Shown in pieces: positions 91 to 13,681 of a stretch of DNA of 14,223 nucleotides. Below the pieces are notes generated by a model. That model worked only from the letters and a program-made list of their open reading frames with translations. It had not been told where the DNA came from and did no database searches. The first letter of the stretch is position 1. Each line of letters opens with the position of its first letter. A program made the translations under genes and the position numbers. Source of the stretch: a virus. The DNA lies in UHGV virus genome UHGV-0138819, one strand, 5' to 3'.

Positions 91-187
91 TTTATTAACG
101 CTATTGTAAAACTGCCGTTTTTCCTCGTTTACAACGGGTGCGCTGGACATTACCATCCTCCTCTGCGATTTATCATCGCAACCAAAC

Positions 188-258
188 GACTCGGGGTGCC
201 CTTCTGCGTGAAGGCTGAGAAATACCCGTATCACCTGATCTGGATAATGCCAGCGTAG
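188..258 (+). repeat. attL: native 5' portion of the thiM TPP riboswitch aptamer; left copy of the 71-bp imperfect direct repeat
   Basis: 188-258 equals 13557-13627 except at 206, 207 and 232. The left copy carries the bases I recall for the canonical E. coli thi-box (CUUCUGCGUGAAGG, GUAUCACC). Homology ends abruptly after 258. Confidence 0.8.
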
Positions 259-319
259 TCTTGGCGATTATCCAAGATATAAATCAAAGACTTGCACGGT
301 TTTTTCTCTTCATTTTGTT

Positions 320-1702
320 ATGTTGTCACTCAGAGAGACAAACAAAATGGCACACACACCGATCAATCACACCATCATCCGTAACGGGATCTACTACGTC
401 AGCTTTCGCCTGTCGGGTCATAAATATTTCCGTCGGTCGTTAGAGACAGATAGCCACAGCCACGCGCAACTCTTGATGTCATTTGCATCTCCAGCCATTC
501 CATTAGTCAAACGTGGAACCATTCACCCGGATCAGTTTGGTCAACGTCTTTCTGATTTCAGCAACCGCTTAAAGCAACAGAATGAACACTGGCTGGTTCA
601 ACAATTTCTCAGTGATGAACGGCGCAATCTTCAGCCGATAGTTGTTCAGGAATACCGGGAGACTGTTACACCTTCAGAAGATGAGGAAGAACAAACTGAA
701 GCACAGTCAAAGGATGTGTTAACACTGGCTGGCGCTTGGAATATGTACAAAAAGGAGAAAGCCCAAAACTGGACGAAGGCAATTTCACAGGCCAATGAGC
801 GCTTTATGGAAGTCATGTTCATTGTCCTCGGTGCATCAACAGACGTAACGACGATAACCAAGCAGGACATCAAGCAGGTGATGGAAGTTGTTGAAAACTT
901 ACCAAAGCGTGTTGTACAGCCTTATCGGTCGATGACGGTTCAGCAACTGATCGAGTGTGATGATGTGCCACCTGAAGATTTGGTTGGCGCTGAGTCTATC
1001 CACAAGCATTTGAAGATTTACAAATCGCTCTTCAAAACCTTCCTGACTGATAATAAAGATATTCTGGAGAAGTCTCCGACAGATGGAGTAGTCGCCGCAC
1101 CGTCAAAAGCGAGGTTTGGTGCATACAGTGCGGCAGAAATGAGAAAGTTTGTGGGGTGGGCGCTCAAGCAGCCTGATGGCTGGCAGAAATGGATCACCTT
1201 GTTGTTGGCGTATACGGGAGCCAGAAGAGGGGAGATCGCCAAGCTGGAGAAATCACAGATCAAATTTGATGAAGATAGCCAGCGGCACTATCTCCTGATA
1301 GCGGAAGGAGGGCAGGGGAAAACCGAGAATGCTACAAGGCAGGTGGCTATCCATCCCAAACTGATCGAGTGGGGTTTTCTTGATTTTGTAAACCGCCAAT
1401 GGAAAGAGAAAATCTTCTCGCCTGTGTCAGGTAAGAACATGCCAAAAATCGGCAAAGTCTTGGCTGATGTCCGTGATCAGCTTGGTATTCCGTACCTTGA
1501 TGATTATGGGCAGCGGCGATTAGTGCATAGTTTCCGGCATACCATGATTTCAACCTGTTTAGCTGGTTGGGTTGGGAACTTAGCGCACTTGCAACAGGTG
1601 GTTGGGCACGAGAAAAGCGGGTCAGGGATCACTCGGCGCTATCTTCATACGTTCCCGCTTTCCACTGTTTGTTATGTGATTGATGGCTTGGGTTGGTTGT
1701 AG
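320..1702 (+). CDS. int: Tyrosine site-specific integrase
   Basis: 460-aa ORF. C-terminal catalytic motifs are visible: TGARRGE (Arg), HSFRHT (His-x-x-Arg), VGHE, RRYLH (Tyr nucleophile). Alternative start at ATG 347 with a purine-rich AGAGAG upstream. Confidence 0.85.
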   Translation: MLSLRETNKMAHTPINHTIIRNGIYYVSFRLSGHKYFRRSLETDSHSHAQLLMSFASPAIPLVKRGTIHPDQFGQRLSDFSNRLKQQNEHWLVQQFLSDERRNLQPIVVQEYRETVTPSEDEEEQTEAQSKDVLTLAGAWNMYKKEKAQNWTKAISQANERFMEVMFIVLGASTDVTTITKQDIKQVMEVVENLPKRVVQPYRSMTVQQLIECDDVPPEDLVGAESIHKHLKIYKSLFKTFLTDNKDILEKSPTDGVVAAPSKARFGAYSAAEMRKFVGWALKQPDGWQKWITLLLAYTGARRGEIAKLEKSQIKFDEDSQRHYLLIAEGGQGKTENATRQVAIHPKLIEWGFLDFVNRQWKEKIFSPVSGKNMPKIGKVLADVRDQLGIPYLDDYGQRRLVHSFRHTMISTCLAGWVGNLAHLQQVVGHEKSGSGITRRYLHTFPLSTVCYVIDGLGWL

Positions 1703-1755: not shown

Positions 1756-1785
1756 TTGAAAGTACATTTTGGATAACCATATAAA
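1756..1785 (+). promoter_or_regulatory. Candidate sigma70 promoter for the cargo genes (TTGAAA, 18-bp spacer, TATAAA)
   Basis: -35 TTGAAA at 1756-1761 and -10 TATAAA at 1780-1785, about 35 bp upstream of the ATG at 1820. Sequence-only prediction. Confidence 0.3.
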
Positions 1786-1819
1786 GCTTAAGTTAATTCC
1801 AACCAGATGAGGATGAGTA

Positions 1820-2077
1820 ATGGCAAGATGTACAGATCAGCACCGCTATTGGGATTTTTTCGAACACTTACCCGACGACCAAGGTGGTATTGGCAGACAT
1901 AAATGTTGCGGTTGTGCTTACGAAAAAGGTTATCAAGCAGGATTAATACGATCCGAAATTTTGAACATTGATCTTGATTCCTTACATGAAAGCCAAGCAG
2001 GCACTGTCCGTCATAAGAGTCCACATGCAGCCTATGCTCAAGGATATTTAGATGGTATTACAGCATCTTATCGGTAA
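1820..2077 (+). CDS. Hypothetical small Cys/His-rich protein (85 aa)
   Basis: ORF with AGGA 6 nt upstream of the ATG. Contains HKCCGC and two AYxxGY repeats. No family recognised. Confidence 0.45.
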   Translation: MARCTDQHRYWDFFEHLPDDQGGIGRHKCCGCAYEKGYQAGLIRSEILNIDLDSLHESQAGTVRHKSPHAAYAQGYLDGITASYR

Positions 2078-2109
2078 TAGCCGCCTAAAAGACAGGAGAT
2101 ACGCTATTT

Positions 2110-2541
2110 ATGTCTGGAATGTTAGCAAGCACAGCGGCCGCTGTAGGAATAATTGATAAAGCTGTAGGAATTGCAAAGAAACTTGCTGATGATGGCGGTG
2201 AACTCGATAAGGCGACGCTTAAACTTGAGCTTGCAAACCTCATGACAGAGCTTGCCAGTGTTAAAATGGAAGTTATCACCACCCAGGCGCTACTTTTTGA
2301 AGCGGAACAGAAGAACAAGCAACTTGAAAACCAATTGAAAGATAAGGAATCATTTGTTTTCAATGCCCCTCTTTATTGGAAAAATGGTGACCAAGTTCCG
2401 TTTTGCCCAAAATGTTATGAGGGTGAAGATAAGAAAGTTCATTTACGCTTAATTGTTCACAATGGTACACCGCAACTAGGACTTCCTCCTGAAAACAAAT
2501 GGGCGTGTATGCATTGTCGTTTTTCGCACTCGAACATTTAG
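2110..2541 (+). CDS. Hypothetical protein, N-terminal coiled coil plus C-terminal Cys4 zinc-ribbon-like motif (143 aa)
   Basis: AGGAGA 10 nt upstream of the ATG. C-terminus has CPKC ...(~30 aa)... CMHC. Heptad-like N-terminal segment. Confidence 0.55.
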   Translation: MSGMLASTAAAVGIIDKAVGIAKKLADDGGELDKATLKLELANLMTELASVKMEVITTQALLFEAEQKNKQLENQLKDKESFVFNAPLYWKNGDQVPFCPKCYEGEDKKVHLRLIVHNGTPQLGLPPENKWACMHCRFSHSNI

Positions 2542-2549
2542 TAAATCAA

Positions 2550-2759
2550 TCATTTTTCGTTTTCAGAAGAGTTAAACGTCTTAGAATAGGGGCAGGATTG
2601 AGAGCGAGTCATCAGGGTAAACAGGTAAACGCTGTTTTCGTAAGTGCAAAGCCTCTTCCCGCCCTGCAACTCCTGTTCGTCGGGGTTGCTCATGGTGATT
2701 TTGCTTGCCGCAGCATTAAAAGCCAGCAACATACCGCAAATCAACAGAATACCTCTCAT
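2550..2759 (-). CDS. Hypothetical small secreted protein (69 aa) with N-terminal signal peptide
   Basis: Strong SD (AAGGGGGAGA) just upstream of the ATG on the minus strand. N-terminus MRGILLICGMLLAFNAAAS looks like a signal peptide. Convergent with the 2110-2541 gene. Confidence 0.5.
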   Translation of the reverse strand: MRGILLICGMLLAFNAAASKITMSNPDEQELQGGKRLCTYENSVYLFTLMTRSQSCPYSKTFNSSENEK

Positions 2760-2831
2760 ATCTCCCCCTTGAATGAACTGCCCTCTTCAATGCTAAATTG
2801 CATCCATCGTTCAACGATTATAGTAACAAAG

Positions 2832-2872
2832 TTGATCAATTTTACCGATCGATTTCGTAATTTCGATCGATT
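2832..2872. promoter_or_regulatory. Three GATC sites and two copies of CGATCGATT in the divergent intergenic region
   Basis: GATC at 2834-2837, 2847-2850 and 2865-2868. CGATCGATT at 2846-2854 and 2864-2872. Lies between the minus-strand gene start (2759) and the plus-strand gene start (~2928). Confidence 0.35.
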
Positions 2873-2927
2873 AAAATAATTAAAAATGTTAAGGCACATG
2901 TCGATGGTGTACTTAATCTATTCATCT

Positions 2928-3692
2928 ATGGAGGCTGTTTTGAAAAAGATTCTTGCATTACCTCTTATGTTCTTTTCCTTCTCGTCCTTCTCTGAAGGCG
3001 TTTCGTCTACAGATGTACAACCATACCCTGAGTACCTGGCGGCCTATGTAAAAACGTTGATTGCTGCTGGATGTGAAGAAACATTGAAAGGCGGTTCTGA
3101 GGACGTATTGATCAAACGGGCAACGGAGGGAATGAAGAAGGGCACGACGGGTTACGATAATGTACACAATGCTATCGTGTTGGGGGCTGGTTTCGGTAAT
3201 GGACTGAAGGAAAAAGGAAAACTTATCACAAAAGAAAAAATCGCGATTGATAGTTGTGGTGGTGCAGCGGCCTATACCATGATGCAAAAAGAATTTATAA
3301 AAACGGTCGTTGCTAGTATGACTAATCCGGAACAATCGCAGGTTGCCGATAGTAAACCCAAAGTGCCAGCTTCTGATGATGCAATTTACCGTACAAAAGC
3401 ACTAGCTCTGGCTGAACTTTATAAAGCTAACGAGGTTGCAGCCGATGACAAAATTGGTGGTCGTAAGGTGGAAGTAACCGGAACTGTACAGGACATAACA
3501 AAAAATTTCACGGATGATGTAGTTCTTAAACTTGAAAGCGGTAATCGCTTCATGCCAGTCAGTCTGAGTATGTCTGATTCAGAAAAGGCGAAAGCGTCGA
3601 AATTGGAAAAGGGCCAGAAGATCACCGTGACTTGCGAAAAGATGCAGTTTTTCATCGGTGCACCGTCTGGCGGAAACTGCACCTTTAACTAA
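2928..3692 (+). CDS. Hypothetical secreted protein (~255 aa) with signal peptide and a possible OB-fold-like C-terminal domain
   Basis: Long ORF ending TAA 3690-3692. N-terminus MEAVLKKILALPLMFFSFSSFSEG looks like a signal peptide. Start ambiguous: ATG 2886, 2898, 2928, or TTG 2940 preceded by GGAGG at 2930-2934. The OB-fold resemblance is my guess. Confidence 0.6.
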   Translation: MEAVLKKILALPLMFFSFSSFSEGVSSTDVQPYPEYLAAYVKTLIAAGCEETLKGGSEDVLIKRATEGMKKGTTGYDNVHNAIVLGAGFGNGLKEKGKLITKEKIAIDSCGGAAAYTMMQKEFIKTVVASMTNPEQSQVADSKPKVPASDDAIYRTKALALAELYKANEVAADDKIGGRKVEVTGTVQDITKNFTDDVVLKLESGNRFMPVSLSMSDSEKAKASKLEKGQKITVTCEKMQFFIGAPSGGNCTFN

Positions 3693-3706
3693 TCTGTCAT
3701 ACGGTC

Positions 3707-3727
3707 TGCCGGGTAAAATTCCCGGCA
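3707..3727 (+). other. Hairpin just downstream of the cargo CDS (7-bp stem TGCCGGG/CCCGGCA, 7-nt loop), no U-tract
   Basis: Inverted repeat seen directly. Not followed by a T-run, so terminator function is uncertain. Confidence 0.3.
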
Positions 3728-4986
3728 ACTCATCTACCCCACCTCATGGATGTCCCTGCTATTTGACGATCCAGCTTACATGCTCTTGCTGAAAATATCT
3801 TACGGCTCTCTGGGCCAGGTGCCTGACGTGACAGACGATCCCTCAATAATTTCTTATCTTCTTGCTGAAATATCGCAGAGCCGACAGGCCCAGTAACGTA
3901 TTTCACCACTTCATCCCGTAGAGCATCACAGCAGGGAAAACTTGCCGCAATAGGGCATTCTACTGTTCGTTTTCTGGTCTATTTAACATAATGGTTCTTA
4001 TAAGTACTTGACTGGAATGGTCAGGTATTACTTTTCGGAACGTTGACGCGAAGCTGGGTACACAACAGCGATTTCACCAACAGAAGGAAAGCATTCAGGA
4101 GGATTCGAGGTGAGTTCTCTTGTTCAAGGATTTTGGATGAGTTTGCCTGGTCACCACACAATTTCAGGTTTCAGACCTTTGAGGCTGCCAGTGTGTCAAA
4201 CGCCATAAAAGCACTTTTTTCTGTTTACCAGCAGACACAAAGCCACTACACCGACGTTACCACAACGGGCTGAAGGTCTGCCATCACCTGGTGATATTCA
4301 CGAGCCTGACCGCCACTGTTTCGTACCATTTCCCAAAACAATGTAAACAGCCAACCCACCAATCCCTTCTACGCTCCACCAGAAGCGCTACAGTGCGTTA
4401 TCCCCCCAGATGTAAACTGACGTACCGATAATCCACGACATCCCACAGCGCGATACAGGAACCACCAGAGGACATCTGTTTTAGTTTTAATGTGTCTTTT
4501 TTATTTTTTGTAAAAAGATGGTTCAGAAAGTGGGTTGTGTTTAGCACCCATTCAATTGGCGGATTCGCCTAGGCCGCGCCATTACTGGCTTCGCTGCATG
4601 CACCACACCATAACGCCCATAGGTACAAACTTGTGATTTGTACGTTTAGTGACCACTTTAGCATGATTAACTACGGATTATAGGCTATTTGAGGTGTATT
4701 TAATCTACTTTGTTCGCAGGATAGCCAATGATAAAGATCATCCACCAAATTTTCACAGAAAACTAGTATAGGGTTGCCAATCTTCAGCCAGCGCGGAGAA
4801 TGGTCGGTATTTTCAGATGAAAGCGGGGGAGGGAGATGATCAATTCTCGGAGCGGATCAGGTGCCTGGACCGCCTCAGGTGTTGCCGTCGATTGTGCCAT
4901 TGAAGCATGACGCGGACATATCAAACCAGAAGTTTTCATCGGTACGTTGGTCGCTTGGATGACTTGGAAAATTCTCACCCGGTGAT

Positions 4987-5075
4987 ACCTGCACGATTTT
5001 CGTGTACCCACCCCCTCGATTTTCGAGCACCTACCTGCACGATTTTCGAGTAGGGGGTAGTCGATTTTCGAGCAC
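4987..5075. repeat. Iteron-like array: four CGATTTTCG-centred repeats at 22-23 bp spacing, followed by an AT-rich tract; candidate replication origin or protein-binding array
   Basis: CGATTTTCG at 4994, 5017, 5040 and 5062. ACCTGCACGATTTTCG is exact at 4987-5002 and 5033-5048. CGATTTTCGAGCAC is exact at 5017-5030 and 5062-5075. AATAATAATAAATAACAAT follows at 5076-5094. Confidence 0.55.
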
Positions 5076-5649
5076 AATAATAATAAATAACAATCTCCAT
5101 AAAAGAACTGATAAGAAAAGTACCTCCAGGTCGAGAGCACGGAATGACGGTTGGTCATTCTGTTAGTTTTAATAGTGATGCTTCTGCATCGCTCCGCTCT
5201 GCAATGGCTGGTCAGCCACTTCAGATATGTTTGTGGTAAGAAGCTCACCTTTGCTGACGTGAAACAGCCGCGCCATCTCGTGACCTTCTAACCCTCGTTA
5301 ACACATCGCTACGCTCTGTGACTCGGGTAACCCGACAGGCTACGCCAGAGAGCTACGCTCTCACTCTGTGTGGAAGCTGCGAACTTGTTCGCCATATGTG
5401 GATCGGAGCACGGCGGAGAGGACTGCTTTGCATCTGTCCGGTTCACTCCGGGGCGGCGCGGGTTGTCTAACTGACTTCCTCAGCGCCTCTCTACGGCGTT
5501 TAAATGGTGTGGGTAACACGATGGTACTGCTATAACGACGAGTCCCCGCAGAACGCGTCACAGAACGATCTAGCACTATTGACAAAGATTTTTTAAACTT
5601 GTAATGTTATGGTGATTATTATGCATTATAAAATGCTACATGATAATGA

Positions 5650-5678
5650 TTGCTATTTACAAACAAATCTGATACAAT
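5650..5678 (+). promoter_or_regulatory. Candidate sigma70 promoter for the 5824-10406 operon (TTGCTA, 17-bp spacer, TACAAT)
   Basis: -35 TTGCTA at 5650-5655 and -10 TACAAT at 5673-5678 in an AT-rich region about 145 bp upstream of the first operon ATG. Confidence 0.4.
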
Positions 5679-5823
5679 AGATTTTAGTAGGGTAATGATT
5701 TACCTACGAATCCTCGAATAATTCTGCCGTCATCACGACATTCCTTGTCAACCTCACGGCAATACAAAATGGGTTACAAATAGAACCTCCGCGAATAATT
5801 CTTTTAACAGAACGGAGAACCCA

Positions 5824-6270
5824 ATGAATAAACCAAAATCCCAACGTCTCGACCTGACCACTATGACAGGCGAGCAGATCGCTGATCTCATCCTGAACGG
5901 CAAATACACCAAATCAGCTTTGTGGGCCTTCATTAGTAGAAACGGCGGGGCAGACGCTGTACATGCTCGACTTCCTCAGATCGCCGTCTGCCTGCAAATC
6001 CTGAAGCAGGCGCGGAAGAAAGCGAAGCAGGCACGAGTGGTTAAGACGGTGCTGAAGCCTCTGAGCAATAAATATGCTGAGGGTAATTCCTTAACGCAAA
6101 TCCTGAATCCTGTGTTACAGGGCTACCGCGAGCTATATAGAGAAAAACTGAATCTGGACCTGACACCAGAACAGGTGATCTTGCTCTTGATCGCCACTGA
6201 TGGTGTGGAACGTCTGGAATCCTACGGTTACACCTGTGCGGGTGACTTCCCGACCGCAACCGCAGTCTAA
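5824..6270 (+). CDS. Hypothetical protein (148 aa), first gene of the rightward operon
   Basis: GGAGA 8 nt upstream of the ATG. No family recognised. Confidence 0.6.
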   Translation: MNKPKSQRLDLTTMTGEQIADLILNGKYTKSALWAFISRNGGADAVHARLPQIAVCLQILKQARKKAKQARVVKTVLKPLSNKYAEGNSLTQILNPVLQGYRELYREKLNLDLTPEQVILLLIATDGVERLESYGYTCAGDFPTATAV

Positions 6271-6357
6271 CAACACTGAACAAAACCTGAGCCGGTTCGC
6301 CTTTGGGCGACCACTGGCGGGAGGTCTTTTGTACCTAAAACGAGGAGGACAACTTGA

Positions 6358-6561
6358 ATGAACATCAAATTTCAACAGCACGTTTATCAGGCTCTACTAG
6401 CTGAGGCCAAAAGGCAGGACAAGCCCCTGGCACGGCTCTGTAATGAAATCTTGGAGACTGCCGCGAACATTTTCGACAACACACCAGACATCAAACCAGC
6501 ATTAGCCAGCAAGGCGACACTTTACGGAGAACAGAATGAGCAAACAGAACCGGGACAGTAA
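6358..6561 (+). CDS. Small putative ribbon-helix-helix (Arc/MetJ/CopG-like) DNA-binding protein (67 aa)
   Basis: AGGAGGA upstream of the ATG. N-terminal strand-like MNIKFQQ followed by two predicted helices (QALLAEAKRQ, PLARLCNEILETA). RHH assignment is by pattern only. Confidence 0.55.
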   Translation: MNIKFQQHVYQALLAEAKRQDKPLARLCNEILETAANIFDNTPDIKPALASKATLYGEQNEQTEPGQ

Positions 6562-7282
6562 GGATTTTGTAAAACTTGAATACAGCATTCTCGACCTTAC
6601 CGAGTACAACGGCCTGACCATTAATGGCAACATGAAAATTTTGCTATCTCTGGTTTACAGCTATGACAAAACAGGCAGAACTTATTACGAGTCTGTTGGC
6701 ATGATTGGTAAACGTTGCGGCTGCAAGCCCGAAGCCGTTCGTAATTTCAGGAACAAGCTTCGTGAAGCGGGAATGATCACTTTTGAGGAAGAGCAGGGGA
6801 GAACACACAAAATTTCTCCGGTCGAACTCGATCCATCGTTGATGGTTTTTCTTGACGATCATAATTCCACGCAGGTGAGTAATAGAAAAGTGGAAACCGA
6901 GGAGAGCGGTAAGAATGAGCAGAAACGTGATGTGGAATCTTTCGTGGTGGAACCTGCCGCGCCTGTTGCTGGAAAACCAGACGGCCTACCTGTTGTGGAT
7001 ATTCCTGTCGATGCTGATGTACCTGCCAATGATGATGCGGTGAACGCTTCTGATAGGTATACCGATGAACAATTAGGCACCAAGCTGAGGCGATGGCGCA
7101 ATTGGGGACTGGATGAAGAAGCAAAAGCGTTTTGTCTCTCTCATGGTATCAGCAGCGATGAGGACAGCATGAATCTGTTTATTCAAAATTATCATGTACC
7201 CGCACCGGAGTCAGTAGAACAACAGGTTAACGCCCCAGCAGATGAGCTGCCGCTTGATTATGATGACTCGATCCCTTTCTGA
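6536..7282 (+). CDS. Hypothetical protein (248 aa) with a putative winged-helix DNA-binding segment and acidic C-terminal region; candidate replication initiator or regulator
   Basis: GGAGA 5 nt upstream of the ATG. Overlaps the previous ORF by 26 nt. Segment YESVGMIGKRCGCKPEAVRNFRNKLREAGMI resembles wH/HTH domains. C-terminal half is D/E-rich. Confidence 0.55.
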   Translation: MSKQNRDSKDFVKLEYSILDLTEYNGLTINGNMKILLSLVYSYDKTGRTYYESVGMIGKRCGCKPEAVRNFRNKLREAGMITFEEEQGRTHKISPVELDPSLMVFLDDHNSTQVSNRKVETEESGKNEQKRDVESFVVEPAAPVAGKPDGLPVVDIPVDADVPANDDAVNASDRYTDEQLGTKLRRWRNWGLDEEAKAFCLSHGISSDEDSMNLFIQNYHVPAPESVEQQVNAPADELPLDYDDSIPF

Positions 7283-7296
7283 TACTGGAGGAATAA

Positions 7297-7818
7297 TTGT
7301 GTGATGTTGCCAACAGCCTGACGGCTGAAACCCTTACGGTGCGAAGCACTTTACCAGAGGTAAACAAATCCGGTGCTGACGCCCCTGATTTGTCCCGTTT
7401 TTACAAGGCCCGCTCTCGTGATACCTCGTTGATCGAGACTGCTAAAAAAATGCTCGTTCACGGTTACACCCCAGGCAAAACGGCGCTGCTCCTACGCTTG
7501 CCGTATGACCTGGTAAAAGGCCTTTACGATAACTCGTGGAATCCTCGCTGTCGCAAGATAAGTAATACCAGTCAGTACGCTACTAAGCGAATGGCCCGAA
7601 TGTACTACGAATCCGGCGCAATGCTGGCAAAAATCTGTGCTGACCTTCAACTGCCTCTATTCACTGTGGTAACGCTGCTCAAGCGTGAAGGAATCACTGA
7701 AAAAGAAATGGCATCTCGAATGCCTGTTAGTGATGATCCGTTGTTCATTGAGTACCGGAAGACTATTTCACGCAAGCAGGCAGCGCCCCAACGCCGATCA
7801 CCACGACTGCATTATTAA
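7297..7818 (+). CDS. Hypothetical protein (173 aa), possible tandem HTH-like segments
   Basis: TTG start 5 nt after GGAGG (7287-7291). No family recognised. Confidence 0.5.
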   Translation: MCDVANSLTAETLTVRSTLPEVNKSGADAPDLSRFYKARSRDTSLIETAKKMLVHGYTPGKTALLLRLPYDLVKGLYDNSWNPRCRKISNTSQYATKRMARMYYESGAMLAKICADLQLPLFTVVTLLKREGITEKEMASRMPVSDDPLFIEYRKTISRKQAAPQRRSPRLHY

Positions 7819-7836
7819 TACCCCAGCCGGGGAAAC

Positions 7837-8265
7837 TTGACCCTATTTGAATATTTATCCTTTCTGCCGTTAGCGGTAGCTGTTCTCCAATGGCTTCGTG
7901 ACGGCCTGGACCTCTACAGGAAACATAACAATATGAATAACATTGAAGCAATCCGCGCCAGTATCCGGGAAGCAATGACCGCAGGAACAGACGAACCGGA
8001 AGATCTGAACAAATCCGCTGAAGAAGCATTGGCGGAGGCGGTGCAGAGTTACCTGTCCGCTTCGACTGCAACAGCCAGCGAGCCAGCCCCAAAAAGTGGT
8101 AAAACCATCAAGGAAAAAGGGATCGCTCTGTGCCACCAAGCCCAAGGTTATAGCGCTAATCTGCGTCCGGTAAGTCTCATGATGAAGGCAAGTCTTGATG
8201 AGCTAACACCTGAACAACGCGCCGCGCTTGAGCGTCTGGGTTACGATATCAATCAGGGGGTGTGA
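7837..8265 (+). CDS. Hypothetical protein (142 aa from TTG 7837, or 111 aa from ATG 7933)
   Basis: TTG 7837 preceded by GGGGA. In-frame ATG at 7933 preceded by AGGAAA. Its stop TGA (8263-8265) overlaps the next ATG (8265-8267). Confidence 0.5.
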   Translation: MTLFEYLSFLPLAVAVLQWLRDGLDLYRKHNNMNNIEAIRASIREAMTAGTDEPEDLNKSAEEALAEAVQSYLSASTATASEPAPKSGKTIKEKGIALCHQAQGYSANLRPVSLMMKASLDELTPEQRAALERLGYDINQGV

Positions 8266-10406
8266 TGTCTGGCACAAATAAGATTGTTACCAGCACCGTT
8301 AATGAAATCTCGTGGATCACAGACGATGCCTCATATCAAAAAGCCAAAAAGAAGATTATCTCGCTTAAGGCTGCTCATGAGAAACCAGCTAAAGCGCTTG
8401 AGAAGGCCCAGAAGCGGACCGTCCAGAGTGAAGGCAAAGCAGCACTAGCCGCAGCGAAAGCCCAGACAGCGAAGCTACGCCAGGCTGAACAATTGTCAAA
8501 ACAGCAACAGAAACAAGCTCAGATACAAGCCAAAATGGAACGGGATGCAGTCTCCCACGCTAATAAAATGACCTCATTACAGGCGCGTCAGTTATCCCAG
8601 CAGGAACAGGCCGCACGGCAGAATGCCAGACTAGCAGCGATATCTGACAAGGTGAGACAGGCGAGTCGCTCCCGTGCAATGACCTACAATCCCAACATGC
8701 CTGGAGTTCACTCCGATCCATCTCTGGTGGCACGTCAAAATGCAGCGATGAACCGTGGTCACGGCGCTGTTGCTGCTGACATCGCAGCCACCAAAAAGGC
8801 GATGGCCTTGGAGGAGAAGCGTCAGCGTGAGAAAGAGGCAGGCCTTAAGCGCGAGGTGACTTATTACAACAGTTTGCGCCGTAGCGCTCTGACTCTGGCA
8901 AACGTGAACGGCGCTGACGTTGCAACCCGGTACAAAGCCATCAGTGCAGCAAAAGAGGCACTTAAAGCCCAGAAAGAAGAGCGCTATACGGTTGAAGAGA
9001 CCCGCTTCGAAATGGCTCGTATCACCACCGAATTACGCAAGCAGGCTCGTCTGCAACAGCGTATGACCCGTGAGCAGAAAGCCGCAGGTGTTCGTGCTGG
9101 TCGTGTACGCACAGAAAGCCGTGGTGGTAGAGCTGGTCTTGCAGCTGCTGGTGTTATTGGTGGTGCGTCGTTAGTGGGTAGTATGGGCGTTTCTCGTGTC
9201 GGTCAGACCCTCCAGGGAAGCCTTGAGCGCTCTCGCGATGTGAAAAAACTCCAGCAGTACGGGATCAGCAACCTTGAGTTCGCTGCACTTCAGGATCTCT
9301 CGATGAGCCGTGTTGGTTACTCACTGAGTGCTGACAAGCTGGCTGACCTCAACAAGGACACAACCGAAAAGGCCGGGGAATTGTTAAACACCGGCTCTTT
9401 CAAACGTAACAAGAAAACTGGACAGGTGAATTTCAGCGGCGGTGGCGAGTTCGCAGATATCATCAACAATGTGCTGACCTCCACCAACGGTAACCAGAAG
9501 GTAGCACAGAAGGTGATCGGAGAACTGCAAAAGCTGGATTTTCCGACCTTCATCACTTACCTGAAACAGTTGCAGAAAACTTTCAAATGGACGGACAACC
9601 AGACCCGGCACCTGGCTGAGGCTGTGAATGATGGTTCGGTCTTCCTCGAAGTGTTCAATGATGAGGGGCAGGGACTTATCCAGCGTATGCATCAACTCTC
9701 TTCTGAAGGATGGACCCTATCTGATGCGCAGCAAGCCAACCTCGATAAACTGGCGGCGTTAGGTGCTGAGTACAACCGAGTGCAAACCAGCCTTGCAGAT
9801 CATTTCTCAGCCTCGTTTGTTGAAGGCCTGGGGCAGTACGCTGCCAATACTGAAACTCTACGTCAGAAGATGACTGGACTGATCCCAATTTCCGATGCCC
9901 TCGGCGTTGCCCTTGGTGAGCTAACCACCAACATTCTCTCCTTCTCTGGTCGAGTCGGTGAAGAACTTAAGAAAGGCGCGACATTGCCGGATGCGGTGTA
10001 TACGAGCGTGGTAGATGAATCTGCAAACGGTGCTGCCGATTGGATTAAGGAAAAGACAGGCTTTGATCCACGTAGCATCGGTCAGACGCTTAAGCAGATT
10101 TACCCGTGGCTGGATAGTTCAGCACCGAGCAATATTGGCTCAGGCACGGCGTATAACGATCCAGCGCTAGCGTTGAATGTTCCTAGCCTGAACTATCTGA
10201 CACCCCAGCAACCGACGTTTACGGTTCCGACAATTGACAGCATGACGCTGCGACAGCCGATTCCTGTCAGTGTTACCGGGCAAGCGAACATTAATCAGCA
10301 GATGGATGTGTTTGTCCATGACGATAAGATCGCAGGGCTGGTTGATACCAAGATAAGGGAGAACAACCACGCGCAGAATAACCTCATCCTTGGGATTGCA
10401 GACTAA
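8265..10406 (+). CDS. Large hypothetical protein (~713 aa): Ala/Lys/Gln-rich coiled-coil N-terminal ~300 aa, Gly-rich hydrophobic segment, unrecognised C-terminal region
   Basis: Uninterrupted 2.1 kb ORF with start overlapping the upstream stop (TGATG). Hydrophobic GLAAAGVIGGASLVGSMGV mid-protein. No Walker A, no relaxase HxH motif, no primase zinc-finger pattern seen. Confidence 0.7.
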   Translation: MSGTNKIVTSTVNEISWITDDASYQKAKKKIISLKAAHEKPAKALEKAQKRTVQSEGKAALAAAKAQTAKLRQAEQLSKQQQKQAQIQAKMERDAVSHANKMTSLQARQLSQQEQAARQNARLAAISDKVRQASRSRAMTYNPNMPGVHSDPSLVARQNAAMNRGHGAVAADIAATKKAMALEEKRQREKEAGLKREVTYYNSLRRSALTLANVNGADVATRYKAISAAKEALKAQKEERYTVEETRFEMARITTELRKQARLQQRMTREQKAAGVRAGRVRTESRGGRAGLAAAGVIGGASLVGSMGVSRVGQTLQGSLERSRDVKKLQQYGISNLEFAALQDLSMSRVGYSLSADKLADLNKDTTEKAGELLNTGSFKRNKKTGQVNFSGGGEFADIINNVLTSTNGNQKVAQKVIGELQKLDFPTFITYLKQLQKTFKWTDNQTRHLAEAVNDGSVFLEVFNDEGQGLIQRMHQLSSEGWTLSDAQQANLDKLAALGAEYNRVQTSLADHFSASFVEGLGQYAANTETLRQKMTGLIPISDALGVALGELTTNILSFSGRVGEELKKGATLPDAVYTSVVDESANGAADWIKEKTGFDPRSIGQTLKQIYPWLDSSAPSNIGSGTAYNDPALALNVPSLNYLTPQQPTFTVPTIDSMTLRQPIPVSVTGQANINQQMDVFVHDDKIAGLVDTKIRENNHAQNNLILGIAD

Positions 10407-10440
10407 AATCATCGTTCCGTCGAAAATGGCGCAGCAAATT

Positions 10441-10460
10441 GGCCCACACGAGAGAGGGCC
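10441..10460 (+). terminator. Weak terminator-like hairpin after the 714-aa gene
   Basis: GGCCC (10441-10445) pairs with GGGCC (10456-10460) around a 10-nt loop, followed by a T-rich stretch (GTTATTGTTTTTGTTGTTG). Confidence 0.25.
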
Positions 10461-10490
10461 GTTGAATTCGCCATGTTATTGTTTTTGTTG

Positions 10491-10520
10491 TTGCAAATGA
10501 TAATCATTCGTGTTAAAATA
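10491..10520 (+). promoter_or_regulatory. Fur-box-like palindrome (AATGAT-A-ATCATT) overlapping a candidate sigma70 promoter (TTGCAA, 18-bp spacer, TAAAAT)
   Basis: Perfect 6-1-6 inverted repeat at 10495-10507 inside 10493-10511, about 14/19 match to the Fur consensus GATAATGATAATCATTATC as I recall it. -35 TTGCAA 10491-10496, -10 TAAAAT 10515-10520. Confidence 0.35.
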
Positions 10521-10926
10521 ATATACAAGGTGAATTACAACAGCCAAATGTTTTCCCTTCTCCTTAGGAATCAAAGTGCGCTTTTCCCAGAGCGCCTTTT
10601 CTCATACAGCCAATATTCGCACCCTCTCACGGTAAGGTTAGGCCATTGCCGCTGGCTGTATCAGAAAAGATTTTCTCCGACCTTGGATCGGGGATTTGCC
10701 AAAGCCTTTCATCCTCGGAAGGCCGTCTTGCCAGACGAAAACTGGCATTGAGTGCGGCAGCGAAGATATGAGGTCTCCCGCTGCTGTGCTCCCTCATTCC
10801 TGAAGCGTGACCCGCCGATCATGCTTTCCAAATCTCTCCATCAGAAAATACCATCGTGAAGCTATTAGCAACGCATGTTGCTAACCCGTAAACGGGTGAA
10901 TTTCATCATCTCCGATGATCTACCAA

Positions 10927-10962
10927 CCGGGGCAGGCGTTTTCCTGCCTCCGGCTCTTTTTC
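10927..10962 (+). terminator. Terminator-like hairpin (CCGGGGCAGG / CCTGCC-T-CCGG) followed by CTCTTTTTCT
   Basis: About 10-bp GC-rich stem with one bulge, T-rich tract a few nt downstream. Confidence 0.4.
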
Positions 10963-10984
10963 TGTTGGGAATACAAATAAAAGA

Positions 10985-11010
10985 ATGCCGTCCGATGGAC
11001 GGTATTTTTT
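10985..11010. terminator. Rho-independent terminator, probably bidirectional
   Basis: Stem ATGCCGTCC / GGACGGTAT with loop GAT, then TTTTT on the plus strand. The plus-strand AAATAAAAG just upstream gives a U-rich tract on the minus strand. Confidence 0.6.
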
Positions 11011-11049
11011 CAACACAACCCGGCATATTCGCCGGATTATAAAAATTGC

Positions 11050-11412
11050 ATGGAGATACAACAAAATATGGCATTCGAACATGAAAGCAAAACCCCACAG
11101 GATGTATTGGTTTATACCGATAGCCCGATCTTTCATAAGCGCACCGTGATCTTTGATCTGGCTGCTGATGTGACTTGTGGTGATGTGATTAACCCGACCA
11201 CTGGCGCGGCATACGTTGCAGCCGATGCTGATAACTGTGCTGTAGCTCTGCAAAATCAAATCGCTGGTGATGCCCGTAGCCTGGTCATTTCAGACCGTGG
11301 CTGTGTGTTCAATCCATCTGGTCTGGTTGTAGCGGCTGCTGCAAAAGATGCTGCTTACGCTGCCCTTGTTAAGCAAGGCAACCGCATTGCTGACGCAAAC
11401 ACTGCAATCTAA
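11050..11412 (+). CDS. Putative phage head decoration-like protein (120 aa, or 114 aa from ATG 11068)
   Basis: Small Ala/Gly/Val/Asp-rich protein immediately upstream of a ~340-aa capsid-like ORF, the lambda D-E arrangement. Product call is inference from size, composition and gene order. GGAGA at 11052-11056 fits the 11068 start. Confidence 0.5.
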   Translation: MEIQQNMAFEHESKTPQDVLVYTDSPIFHKRTVIFDLAADVTCGDVINPTTGAAYVAADADNCAVALQNQIAGDARSLVISDRGCVFNPSGLVVAAAAKDAAYAALVKQGNRIADANTAI

Positions 11413-11430
11413 TCAAGGAGTGATAACAAT

Positions 11431-12447
11431 ATGAAATTAAGTGATTTTACTAACCTTTCCGGTCAGTTTGTGAAGCCAAGCGGCGAGGGGTTCCTTCTGT
11501 CCAGCCTGGGGATCTTTACCAGCCGTCCAAGTGATACGCAAATCATCGCGCTCGACACACTGGAAGATGTGCAGCGTGAAGTGACCAAATCTGTTGCCCG
11601 TTATGGTTCTGAAATGTCCGGTCTAAACTTCCCTAAAGCGGCTAACGTGACTGTTCAGGCTCCACTGCATGTCTACAGCTCAACCATCACCAGCCAGGAT
11701 TGGCAGGGGAAACGTCAGCCGGGAACAAATCGCCAGATGACCGCTGAAGATGTAGTTGCTAATCATACCCTGAAGCACTACCTGCAAACCCGCCGTGATG
11801 TTGAATATGCCATGGCGCAGAGCCTGCTTCACAATACTGTAGAGGCGACACACCTTCGTGAAGGTCCTGATCTGAACTGGCAAACCTTCTGGGGTATTAA
11901 CCAGCCGTCTGCTGTGGTGAAAACTGGCATCAGTGCCAACGTTATTACTGAGATGCAGAACGCTGTCACGCTGCTGAAGAAAAATCTGGGTGGCTGGTCT
12001 TCCAGCATCAAGCAGGTTTATCTGCTAGCGAGTCCGAGTCTTTTCACCGCCATTCAAGGCAACCCAACCGCATATCAGGCGGCTCTGTTTGGTGCTACGT
12101 CCCGTGACATCATTTTCCCTGACACTTTGGGCGCATATGATCGATACAACATCGGGCGCGTAACTGTAGTTCAGGTTGACGATCCGCTATACGGCATTGC
12201 AGATGGTGAAGGCTACATGCTGGCGACGTTCTCCAATGTTGTTGAAGGCGACCTTTCACCTTATATGACTTACCAGACTCCGGCGAGCCGTCATGCTGAC
12301 GTTGCTAATGGTCCGGTTTATCCGTCTTACCATTACGTTCTGCGTGATAAGTTCATGAATTATGAGGTGGTCAGCGAGCTATCACAAATTCAGATCCCAA
12401 TGCGTCCAGACTTCGTTTTGAAAATTACGATGGATGACGCGGCGTAA
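11431..12447 (+). CDS. Putative major capsid protein (338 aa), possibly lambda gpE-like
   Basis: AGGAG upstream of the ATG. Length and position after the small decoration-like ORF fit a major capsid protein. Family assignment not verified. Confidence 0.6.
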   Translation: MKLSDFTNLSGQFVKPSGEGFLLSSLGIFTSRPSDTQIIALDTLEDVQREVTKSVARYGSEMSGLNFPKAANVTVQAPLHVYSSTITSQDWQGKRQPGTNRQMTAEDVVANHTLKHYLQTRRDVEYAMAQSLLHNTVEATHLREGPDLNWQTFWGINQPSAVVKTGISANVITEMQNAVTLLKKNLGGWSSSIKQVYLLASPSLFTAIQGNPTAYQAALFGATSRDIIFPDTLGAYDRYNIGRVTVVQVDDPLYGIADGEGYMLATFSNVVEGDLSPYMTYQTPASRHADVANGPVYPSYHYVLRDKFMNYEVVSELSQIQIPMRPDFVLKITMDDAA

Positions 12448-12509
12448 GACAGCGTATTTTGGGGGCGCATTGCCCCCGCTGCAGGCGAGCCAAAGGAAAG
12501 GAGATACAT

Positions 12510-12722
12510 ATGAAATTAGCTTTGATCGGTACTGGCAACATGCCGCTGATGCAGTGGATTCTAGATGGCAAGGGCGATGATGCGATTATCAACATGTCAG
12601 CGTTAGCACGCAGGCTTGAGTGTAGTCGTTCCAGCCTACTTGACCGCATCCATACGCATGGATTCGACAGCGCTATTAGGTACTACCTCAACGAACAGCG
12701 ACAACGAAAACTGAAAACATGA
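12510..12722 (+). CDS. Small HTH-like protein (70 aa); candidate DNA-binding, excisionase or packaging accessory
   Basis: Strong SD (AAGGAAAGGAGA) 6 nt before ATG 12510. The ORF track extends it to 12459, but the SD supports 12510. INMSALARRLECSRSSLLDRI resembles a helix-turn-helix. Confidence 0.55.
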   Translation: MKLALIGTGNMPLMQWILDGKGDDAIINMSALARRLECSRSSLLDRIHTHGFDSAIRYYLNEQRQRKLKT

Positions 12723-12723
12723 G

Positions 12724-12749
12724 AGCCGGGTTAATCCCGGCTTTTTTTA
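12724..12749. terminator. Strong rho-independent terminator shared by convergent genes
   Basis: AGCCGGG-TTAAT-CCCGGCT followed by 7 T (12743-12749), 1 nt after the plus-strand stop. The hairpin overlaps the last codons and stop of the minus-strand CDS. Confidence 0.8.
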
Positions 12750-13366
12750 TGTACTTTGCTGAAGTCAAAAAGATTGTCAAATTTAATGATATCTAATCCA
12801 GAGATAGCGTGATTAACATCTTTCATCATTGCGCCATGTTCATCATAAGCGTTACGTATTGCCATGAATTCTTCTGGTGTTATCTGTGCTTTAAGCAAAG
12901 CCTGCATGATGAGAGTCATCAGTTTTGAGATGGCTATTTGCGTATTACCAGAAGATCGAAGAAGGGCGTTGAATGGCTCCCAGGAAACCTTTTTAATCAG
13001 AACATTATAGTGACTTAACTTGATGAAAGAGCTACCAATGCGAAAGGTATTTTCCGTCATATCTTTCAAGGATTCTTGAATATGATAATAGCTTTCTTCG
13101 TCGGCTTTTTGTCCTGATTTCGCCAGTGTGTCGAGAAAAGTCATAATGCGGTTTAAGTCAAAGCGCATACGATTGTAACGGCTTCTGGTGCTATCAATTT
13201 CTTCTTTAAGAGCGATTGCTGAATCAATTGCCCGCTCCATTTTTCTCGTCTTCACAATCTCCTGAAGTTTAACCCCTCCGAAGATGACGCCGCCAACCAC
13301 ACTCAACGCTGTTACAGCATTCGAAGCGATAGAGATAATGTTATCCCATGCTTGTAAATCCATCAT
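12731..13366 (-). CDS. Hypothetical membrane-anchored protein (211 aa) with one N-terminal transmembrane helix; candidate exclusion or defence gene
   Basis: AAGAGG SD before the ATG on the minus strand. N-terminus IISIASNAVTALSVVGGVIFGGV looks like a TM helix. Appears AT-rich by eye. Convergent with the capsid operon, adjacent to attR. Confidence 0.65.
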   Translation of the reverse strand: MMDLQAWDNIISIASNAVTALSVVGGVIFGGVKLQEIVKTRKMERAIDSAIALKEEIDSTRSRYNRMRFDLNRIMTFLDTLAKSGQKADEESYYHIQESLKDMTENTFRIGSSFIKLSHYNVLIKKVSWEPFNALLRSSGNTQIAISKLMTLIMQALLKAQITPEEFMAIRNAYDEHGAMMKDVNHAISGLDIIKFDNLFDFSKVHKKSRD

Positions 13367-13435: not shown

Positions 13436-13556
13436 CCTGTCACACATAGACCAAAAGGGCCGCTTTTACCGTTTACAAGACTTCCCGCTGGCATTACTAT
13501 CCTGATCAGGGATTAATGAGGAGCATTAATCGCAAGCTTTTGATTTTATAGTACAT

Positions 13557-13627
13557 GACTCGGGGTGCCCTTCTTTGTGAAGGCTGAGAAATACCCGTAT
13601 TACCTGATCTGGATAATGCCAGCGTAG
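13557..13627 (+). repeat. attR: element-derived riboswitch-like 5' arm plus shared core; right copy of the 71-bp direct repeat
   Basis: Differs from 188-258 at three positions (TT for GC at 13575-13576, T for C at 13601). Canonical host sequence resumes after 13627 (GGAAGTCACGG...). Confidence 0.8.
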
Positions 13628-13681
13628 GGAAGTCACGGACCACCAGGTCATTGCTTCTTCACGTTATGGCAGGAGCAAACT
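13557..13681 (+). promoter_or_regulatory. TPP (thi-box) riboswitch in the thiM 5' leader, hybrid of element-derived 5' aptamer half and host 3' half plus expression platform
   Basis: GGGGTGCCCTTCT..GTGAAGGCTGAGAAATACCCGTAT.ACCTGATCTGGATAATGCCAGCGTAGGGAAGTCACGGACCACCAGGTCATTGCTTCTTCACGTTATGGCAGGAGCAAACTATG matches the E. coli thiM riboswitch as I recall it, apart from three substitutions in the 5' half. Confidence 0.85.

Follow-up and report, generated by a model that had tools for sequence, protein, structure and literature searches.

A probable anti-phage hotspot next to the integrase of a satellite-like Escherichia coli island carries a divergent gene of the Rip1 superfamily

The window analysed here, a stretch of 14,223 bp listed as UHGV virus genome UHGV-0138819, is Escherichia coli chromosome with a 13.4-kb satellite-like island inserted in the thiamine pyrophosphate (TPP) riboswitch of thiM. 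Four small open reading frames (ORF1 to ORF4, Table 1) lie at positions 1756-3692, to the right of the integrase gene of this island. Our analysis indicates that this region is probably an integrase-proximal anti-phage hotspot, organised as a mosaic of independently mobile cassettes: ORF2 is a gene of the Rip1 superfamily, ORF4 (possibly with ORF3) would act at the level of the cell envelope and ORF1 would be a gene riding with the hotspot. Such a hotspot is in itself an expected find and no new type of system; the interest lies in ORF1, ORF3 and ORF4 as candidates, in the adjacency of Rip1-like and RAZR genes in relatives and in the unusual carrier. An earlier model-generated reading of the letters alone (the sequence-only reading) had described a cargo module of four genes, none of which resembled a known system. 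The genes are indeed accessory cargo, whereas their unity did not hold: ORF1, ORF2 and the ORF3/ORF4 pair each occur independently of one another elsewhere, a homology breakpoint falls inside ORF2, and the idea that the four genes form one system is not supported. The absence of any resemblance was also contradicted, as ORF2 belongs by sequence homology to the Rip1 superfamily and the C-terminal domain of ORF4 matches PF12869 as well as a 'Sie-like' PHROG family.

ORF2 was assigned to the Rip1 superfamily by profile comparison. A first profile match to Rip1 was driven by a coliphage protein of 189 residues (L006:3980-4549), which falls in the same PHROG family as ORF2 (phrog_1244, 6e-40), matches the PDB sequence of Rip1, 9oox_L, at 8.5e-48 and shares 27% identity with ORF2 over 98% of the ORF2 length (E 3e-4). 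The test was redone with this protein left out. A profile search of 1.84 billion representatives yielded 1,232 related clusters at E<=1e-3, and the profile A5 comprised ORF2 and 107 representatives, L006 being excluded. Against the PDB sequences, the top match of A5 was 9oox_L (E 9.7e-9), with positions 7-133 aligned to 11-156 and the four cysteines in register, four orders of magnitude ahead of the generic zinc fingers. Furthermore, 107 of the 108 A5 members match phrog_1244, and hhalign of the ORF2 family with the Rip1 sequence gave an E value of 2.7e-5 and a probability of 74%. Homology to the structurally characterised Rip1 (9OOX) is detectable in this way, and ORF2 is on these sequence grounds a member of the Rip1 superfamily. 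When searched with HMMER against the PDB, neither ORF2 alone nor the narrow family profile A4 matched Rip1 and the broadened profile was needed; the relationship to Rip1 is therefore remote.

The architecture of ORF2 is compatible with this assignment. Like Rip1 (164 residues), it is a single small protein with an Ala/Gly-rich helical N-terminal half and a C-terminal domain carrying four cysteines. In the AlphaFold2 (AF2) model (predicted local distance difference test score, pLDDT, 81.6), helices 2-26 and 31-80 are followed by a beta-rich zinc ribbon at 82-141. Residues 1-80, which include the Ala/Gly-rich helix and the long helix, are near-invariant among homologues. C99, C102, C133 and C136 (CxxC...CxxC) are invariant, in contrast to the hypervariable loop that separates the two CxxC pairs. 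Identity to the homologues amounts to 82-88% in the N-terminal half and 36-43% in the C-terminal half. The same division is visible at the DNA level, where the homology of the window to the int-ORF1-ORF2 block of a small island (L009/L011, 88-89% nucleotide identity) stops at position 2441, in codon 111 of ORF2, which implies that the zinc-ribbon half was exchanged by recombination. A conserved N-terminal half, a divergent C-terminal half and a breakpoint at 2441 would fit a conserved effector joined to a diversifying sensor. ORF2 differs from Rip1 in its low identity (about 27%) to bona fide Rip1 homologues, in the shorter and hypervariable insert between its CxxC knuckles, and in its location beside the integrase of a satellite-like island, whereas Rip1 lies between prophage terminase genes.

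According to the summary in PMC13434031, Rip1 ("ring interacting pore 1") is a single, prophage-encoded protein that is harmless alone; its C-terminal half binds the ring of the phage small terminase or portal, 12 Rip1 being placed around an 11-mer small terminase, and its N-terminal amphipathic helices then form a pore, so that the infected cell dies early (Patel et al. 2026, as summarised there). By analogy with Rip1, a single ORF2 polypeptide would serve as both sensor and effector. The variable zinc ribbon at its C-terminus would recognise a late phage protein of ring shape (the small terminase or the portal), which would become surrounded by about 12 copies of ORF2; the conserved helices of the N-terminal half would then form a pore across the inner membrane and abort the infection. 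The trigger and the pore are transferred here from Rip1, while membership in the family was established for ORF2 itself.

Several observations weigh against this reading of ORF2, in addition to the failure of ORF2 alone and of A4 to find Rip1. Foldseek, run with the ORF2 monomer model against the PDB, returned non-significant helical hairpins and did not list 9oox, an entry that may be absent from the library or whose assembly may differ from a monomer. For ORF2 residues 3-26, the hydrophobic moment is 0.26, the mean of the shuffled sequences is 0.16, and 13% of the shuffles reach the ORF2 value; for Rip1 residues 4-30 the moment is 0.35, reached by 0.8%. PADLOC 2.0 gave no match for any of the four proteins. 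Finally, a satellite with a sensor for the terminase or portal ring must somehow spare its own helper phage. The negative profile searches, the Foldseek result and the identity of about 27% to true Rip1 homologues would also be explained if ORF2 were a generic coiled coil followed by a zinc ribbon, with a convergent or compositional match to Rip1 and no ring-triggered pore. This explanation is improbable, since the broadened profile selects Rip1 first, over the full length and far above the zinc fingers, and since ORF2 shares the PHROG family of a Rip1 homologue and has the same length, domain order and mobile-element context.

As for Rip1, no obligate partner could be recognised for ORF2. The gene upstream of ORF2-like genes differs across 21 loci (ORF1, RAZR, an AbiJ-like gene, a gene for a 177-aa protein, genes for secreted proteins, or none), and ORF1 precedes an ORF2 homologue in only 1 of 18 genomic loci. 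Other ORF2 homologues have no integrase at their side and adjoin DarTG, PAAR toxins or AbiJ-like genes. At the thiM site of Serratia (L034-L038), a Rip1-like gene lies between the duplicated TPP riboswitch and thiM, with no integrase; it is accompanied by the 177-aa partner, a UDG-family gene and DarT-NADAR (DarTG), the 177-aa gene being paired in L036 with a DUF7480 gene instead. This Serratia locus looks like a decayed island at the same attachment site.

The sequence-only reading had proposed that the place beside the integrase is a hotspot for defence or other cargo and that related elements should be compared for cargo swapping. The comparison supports a cargo hotspot, and slot content is swapped among related elements. 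Homology to relatives breaks at 2078/2110, at 2441 and at 3981-3987. On the right, the variant L021 ceases to be homologous at 3987, and the small island L009/L011, like satellites at other attachment sites, becomes homologous from 3981 on; the variable slot thus extends from int (or int-ORF1) on the left to about 3981-3987 on the right. At least seven different slot contents were found at the thiM site or in sister satellites, so that variable content stands between conserved flanks, and validated defence systems (RAZR/PD-T7-4, PD-Lambda-3, Hachiman, GmrSD, a type IV restriction enzyme, RmrTA) occupy the same slot in relatives. In Enterobacter chinensis (L060), the 32-bp spacer of the window between ORF1 and ORF2 is replaced by a gene for a 210-aa protein, which is PD-T7-4 (5e-91). 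Behind related integrases at this riboswitch site stand, in different cases, DUF1837 and a helicase (Hachiman, by annotation), a GmrSD-domain protein (by annotation), a type IV HNH restriction enzyme (mREase_IV, 1e-23), or ORF1, a 313-aa zinc-finger protein, ORF3 and ORF4. Sister satellites have the same core, about 90% identical from 3981 on, are integrated elsewhere and carry in the slot either a RAZR homologue (L074, 6e-102) with a membrane protein of 262 residues, or two small proteins of the membrane and zinc-ribbon types. In L021/L008 (E. coli GCA_052938395.1), a variant of the island in which IS66 is inserted between ORF3 and ORF4, the genes for PD-Lambda-3 A and B (2e-100 and 1e-179) stand just right of ORF4, and from 3987 on the core is replaced by these two genes together with Mrr-like, 1,040-aa STAND-like and Pua-like/metallophosphatase genes.

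PD-T7-4 is now named RAZR, a zinc-finger HEPN RNase that is activated by rings and needs no partner (PMC13017515, PMC9519451), and PD-T7-4 homologues often overlap or abut an integrase gene (Vassallo et al.). Three properties link RAZR with the cargo of the window: it sits in exactly the ORF1-ORF2 slot of relatives, it is a single zinc-finger sensor of ring-shaped phage proteins and it abuts integrases. RAZR itself is absent from the window, and no DUF4145/HEPN domain was matched by Pfam or PADLOC in any of the four proteins. In Klebsiella oxytoca, Buttiauxella and Phytobacter, the gene immediately 5' of a Rip1-like gene is RAZR. In four loci from four genera (L029, L055, L057 and L060), RAZR/PD-T7-4 and the Rip1-like gene are adjacent and co-oriented; as both are zinc-finger proteins with reported activation by phage proteins of ring shape, the two may represent a recurrent pairing.

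Phage-inducible chromosomal islands (PICIs) carry immune systems. The slot of the window shares with the hotspots of P2/P4 and PICIs a short variable region at a fixed place beside the integrase or attachment site, conserved flanks, a different small defence system in each copy and a G+C content below that of the core. Its carrier differs in being neither P4-like nor a classical PICI, with lambda gpD/gpE-like capsid genes, no detectable terminase or portal and a riboswitch as attachment site, and in that the same integrase and slot are joined to unrelated backbones. The P2/P4 hotspots of phages and satellites are those of Rousset et al. 2022, as cited in PMC9519451.

ORF1 codes for an unusually conserved protein. 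Its homologues form 290 clusters (65-87% identity), which reach from Enterobacterales as far as Vibrio, Photobacterium, Pseudoalteromonas and Methylophaga; across these orders the identity is 65-75%. Residues H8, R9, H27, C29, C32, R64 and H65 are invariant, suggesting that the protein probably binds a metal (Zn). Its ratio of nonsynonymous to synonymous substitution rates (dN/dS) is 0.08. The ORF1 homologues are found in contrasting surroundings: just 3' of cI and co-oriented with it in a P22-like phage, alone and with no downstream partner in the A-Q hotspot of a P2-like phage, directly 5' of the candidate system PDC-M18AB and beside GmrSD in Vibrio, directly 3' of an ApeA-like gene in Pseudoalteromonas, and, in L060 and in the viral contig L075, 5' of RAZR and of a gene of RAZR size, respectively. 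The 87 neighbour clusters in 80 viral contigs with ORF1 include restriction-modification enzymes, RmrA, reverse transcriptases, PD-T7-4 and PD-Lambda-2; the one of the 87 that matches PD-T7-4 is presumably the L075 gene. No Rip1-like neighbour was present in the 80 viral ORF1 loci. With such varied defence neighbours and none of the Rip1 type, ORF1 is a hotspot gene and not an obligate partner of ORF2. An obligate two-gene system of ORF1 and ORF2 was rejected on these counts (0 of 80 viral ORF1 loci with a Rip1-like gene, 1 of 18 ORF2 loci with ORF1), and so was an ancestral convergent pair of ORF1 and ORF3 flanking the cassette site, as no ORF3-like ORF was found near ORF1 outside thiM-type islands.

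The position of ORF1 and ORF2 could also be explained if both were accessories of the integrase (an excisionase or recombination directionality factor, RDF, or an excision regulator) and not cargo, the block of int, ORF1 and the N-terminal half of ORF2 being conserved across thiM islands. The small island L009/L011, which has another host background, matches the window collinearly over int, ORF1 and codons 1-110 of ORF2, and everything to the right differs; ORF1 follows the integrase in E. coli A11 too, and it is small and probably metal-binding. We consider this explanation highly improbable. ORF1 homologues lack an adjacent integrase in the P22-like immunity region, the P2 A-Q region, the conjugative element and beside the ApeA-like and PDC-M18 genes, the same is true of ORF2 homologues beside DarTG, PAAR toxins and AbiJ-like genes, and ORF2 falls in the Rip1 family. 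ORF1 was rejected as an excisionase/RDF, since no helix-turn-helix (HTH) or winged-helix Xis family was matched in Pfam, NCBIfam or PHROGs and its homologues lie far from integrases; ORF2 likewise shows no HTH or Xis family. A ribosome modulation factor (RMF) was also discarded: the scores are 16.6 bits for the Pfam RMF family (cut-off 27.9) and 17.8 bits for NCBIfam (cut-off 40), and hhalign gave a probability of 5.7% over 13 residues, the shared piece being a short A-x-x-x-G-Y-x-x-G motif. The ORF1 profile found nothing significant among the PDB sequences.

In the preferred reading, ORF1, which is usually the first gene ahead of a variable defence gene, would be either a stand-alone defence gene or moron, or a 'leader' regulator of the cassette that follows. 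Two observations fit less well with a defence function. The conservation of ORF1 is unusually high for a defence gene, and one homologue adjoins acaB in an integrative and conjugative element (ICE), a neighbourhood that would suit a regulator or an anti-defence gene equally. These observations, together with the place of ORF1 as first gene before Rip1-like genes, RAZR, the 313-aa zinc-finger protein or PDC-M18AB, would be explained if ORF1 were an anti-defence gene or a transcription regulator, its place ahead of defence genes reflecting their control or protection of the element; high conservation across gammaproteobacterial orders would fit a conserved target or DNA motif. Such a role is possible, and we regard it as doubtful: no DNA-binding fold and no known anti-defence family were detected in ORF1, the co-orientation with cI in a P22-like phage is the classic site of defence morons expressed in the lysogen, the homologue in the P2 hotspot has nothing downstream to regulate, and RAZR has a promoter of its own and acts alone.

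ORF3 and ORF4 form a divergent pair. Both have a basic N-terminus followed by a hydrophobic core (MKK, hydrophobic core, SFS|E in ORF4). In ORF4, a helical N-domain (31-128, with Cys45/Cys106) is connected by a linker to a C-terminal OB fold (149-249, with Cys232/Cys247), and the AF2 model (pLDDT 72.6) reproduces the helical N-domain, a disordered linker and the OB fold. The two cysteine pairs, one per domain, are invariant, which suggests periplasmic disulfides. ORF4 has no lipobox cysteine, so that the name 'lipoprotein' is unsupported for this protein. The best PDB match of the ORF4 model in Foldseek was 3f1z, over the OB fold only, and the matches in BFVD were tRNA_anti-like phage proteins and one 'host cell surface-exposed lipoprotein'; the N-domain had no match in either library.

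These features suggest that ORF4, possibly with ORF3, is most likely an exported superinfection-exclusion or envelope-level factor. The exclusion role is proposed because of the putative signal peptides, the conserved cysteine pairs, the match to a PHROG family (phrog_8545) annotated as 'superinfection exclusion Sie-like', and the placement in a repressor operon and in defence islands. ORF4 would be exported to the periplasm and block superinfection at the level of the envelope. With the Sie proteins (PHROG 8545; surface lipoproteins of the Ltp type) and the PF12869 proteins (PDB 3F1Z), ORF4 has in common a putative export signal and a C-terminal OB fold, the presence of homologous domains in prophage repressor operons and the BFVD match to a surface-exposed lipoprotein. 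It differs from them by the missing lipobox cysteine and by its additional helical N-domain. The C-terminal domain of C. difficile TcdC (PMC3575817) is another OB fold of the PF12869 type.

Carl1, a P2-like phage of Burkholderia, encodes an OB domain homologous to that of ORF4 within its immunity-repressor operon, and full-length homologues occur close to psu in a P4-like element of Edwardsiella and beside RmrTA in an Enterobacter island, where RmrT and RmrA (1e-57 and 4e-144) adjoin the ORF3/ORF4 pair. An ORF3-like gene stands divergently 5' of the ORF4 homologue in 4 of the 6 contexts examined. ORF3-like genes that have no ORF4 beside them close the slot on its right side in sister satellites and the GmrSD island, and they also follow Rip1-like genes. 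ORF3 (dN/dS 0.13) has homologues in 74 phage records, mostly of large virulent phAPEC8-like phages, and recurs at the right slot edge of related islands and satellites. The scan of viral contigs for ORF4 gave a single locus.

The exclusion role has to be weighed against three facts: 'Sie-like' is the label of a PHROG family only, the PF12869 proteins have no established function, and no ORF3 homologue could be detected near the ORF4 homologues of Edwardsiella and of the single viral contig. To our knowledge, no PF12869 protein has an exclusion phenotype. ORF3 and ORF4 might instead be ordinary envelope or fitness proteins (stress, adhesion, nucleic-acid uptake) or part of the island backbone, unrelated to phage exclusion. 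ORF3 keeps the right slot edge in several otherwise different islands and satellites, PF12869 comprises widespread chromosomal 'putative lipoproteins' of solved structure and with no known function, and PADLOC did not recognise the two proteins. This alternative appears rather unlikely, as ORF4 is missing from sister satellites that retain ORF3, and ORF4 at least is therefore cargo; moreover, ORF4-type OB domains are present in the Burkholderia P2-like repressor operon, in the psu-proximal region of the Edwardsiella P4 and beside RmrTA, the PHROG annotation is 'Sie-like', and the ORF3 homologues occur in many virulent phages.

If the hotspot reading is correct, the recent Rip1 mechanism would reach a large and divergent enterobacterial branch (the 1,232 clusters) carried by satellite-like islands, ORF2 adding a divergent member to a family described in 2026. 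The repeated adjacency of Rip1-like and RAZR genes would hint at a layered sensing of the same class of ring-shaped phage structures, and the integrase slot at the thiM riboswitch could be used as a compact 'bait' locus for further systems. ORF1, ORF3 and ORF4 would then be short, well-conserved and cheap candidates for new defence or exclusion functions. A more speculative extension, to which we give only tentative credit, is that ORF1 founds a class of small Cys/His 'leaders', which would control or potentiate interchangeable single-gene ring sensors and other defence genes (Rip1-like, RAZR, PDC-M18, the 313-aa zinc-finger protein) or be minimal stand-alone defences conserved among Gammaproteobacteria, and/or that ORF3 and ORF4 constitute a new periplasmic two-protein exclusion system.

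The four ORFs are present where the sequence-only reading had placed them, with two small corrections, to the strand of ORF3 and the start of ORF4. They are annotated by the Prokaryotic Genome Annotation Pipeline (PGAP) in two identical E. coli chromosomes, the homologues of each are many (40-87% identity, dozens to hundreds of clusters per protein) with the reading frame intact, and the pairwise dN/dS values of 0.08-0.23, indicative of purifying selection, show that they are real genes and not chance ORFs. A Shine-Dalgarno-like sequence can be read 5' of ORF1, ORF2 and ORF3. The start of ORF4, previously set at ATG 2928, is most likely the TTG at 2940 called by PGAP, preceded by GGAGG at 2930-2934 and equivalent to the MKKI start of most homologues. 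ORF3 lies on the minus strand and is convergent with ORF2, with a gap of 8 bp. The location of the genes between int and an ORF-free region (3693-5823) was confirmed, and their AT-richness by eye is true but modest: positions 1756-3692 have a G+C content of 42.0%, compared with 47.3% over the whole element, 47.9% in int and 50.0% in the core (5824-12722). Promoter-like matches are present between ORF3 and ORF4 on the minus strand (2904-2876 and 2866-2839), in no larger number than expected by chance, and the scan for promoters and terminators gave nothing above chance. A literature search by WP accessions found nothing. Homology to housekeeping or structural phage proteins, which would have spoken against cargo, was looked for and not found in any of the four genes.

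Two E. coli chromosomes, those of AREA_C483 and TC24, contain the window at 100% identity. From PGAP and Rfam, the order is rcnR, a copy of the TPP riboswitch, the 13.4-kb insert, the intact TPP riboswitch and thiM, whereas about 5,400 other complete E. coli genomes have an empty site in which rcnR is joined directly to a single riboswitch and thiM. Rfam matched only these two TPP riboswitch copies over the whole window. The riboswitch is duplicated by the island, and the same site is taken by several unrelated islands in E. coli, Serratia and other genera; related integrases at this attachment site bring different cargo. Lambda gpD- and gpE-like head genes are present in the core and neither a terminase nor a portal was detected among the island proteins; by gene content the island therefore looks like a phage satellite, with a core gene set that is unusual for such an element.

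Table 1. Features of the window and of the island it contains.
Feature	Position	Strand	Evidence
attL copy of the thiM TPP riboswitch, left end of island	182..278	+	Rfam RF00059, 53.6 bits (gathering score 54.3); PGAP riboswitch
Tyrosine integrase, 451 aa by PGAP (alternative start 320)	347..1702	+	PF00589 9e-7; phrog_1 7e-26
ORF1, 85 aa, Cys/His	1820..2077	+	phrog_3941 9e-25
ORF2, 143 aa, Rip1 superfamily (by homology)	2110..2541	+	phrog_1244 2.6e-7, full length
ORF3, 69 aa, predicted signal peptide, 2 conserved Cys in mature part	2550..2759	-	phrog_4641 3e-9
ORF3/ORF4 divergent intergenic region, presumed promoters	2760..2939		35% GC; composition
ORF4, 250 aa, predicted signal peptide, two domains	2940..3692	+	PF12869 8e-16 (above cut-off); phrog_8545 5e-22
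Right boundary of variable slot	3981..3987		Homology breakpoint common to several relatives
Conserved backbone stretch without annotated gene, not cargo	3981..5823		Also present, without annotation, at other loci of 12 further E. coli genomes (about 90% identity)
Replication-initiator-like protein	within 5824-12722		HTH_36; PHROG DnaD/O-like
713-aa protein of the core	8262-10406		Weak tape-measure PHROG matches
Lambda gpD-like protein	11050-11412		Core head gene
Lambda gpE-like major capsid protein	11431-12447		Core head gene
Intact TPP riboswitch, thiM-proximal copy	13551-13647		Rfam, 73.6 bits

To the right of the cargo, PGAP calls no ORF in the unannotated stretch 3693-5823. Positions 3981-4380 are 89-97% identical in relatives and about 78% identical in a different small island. 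At 4986-5075, four iteron-like repeats (consensus TCGATTTTCGAGCAC) follow one another at a spacing of about 23 bp and suggest a replication origin; the stretch 3981-5823 is probably a replication origin or a regulatory region. An ORF of 154 codons on the minus strand (4784-5248) overlaps the repeats and is open in a relative. At the attR end of the island, a gene for a 211-aa protein (12731-13366, minus strand) has a G+C content of 39.8%, the lowest in the island, and may represent a second cargo position.

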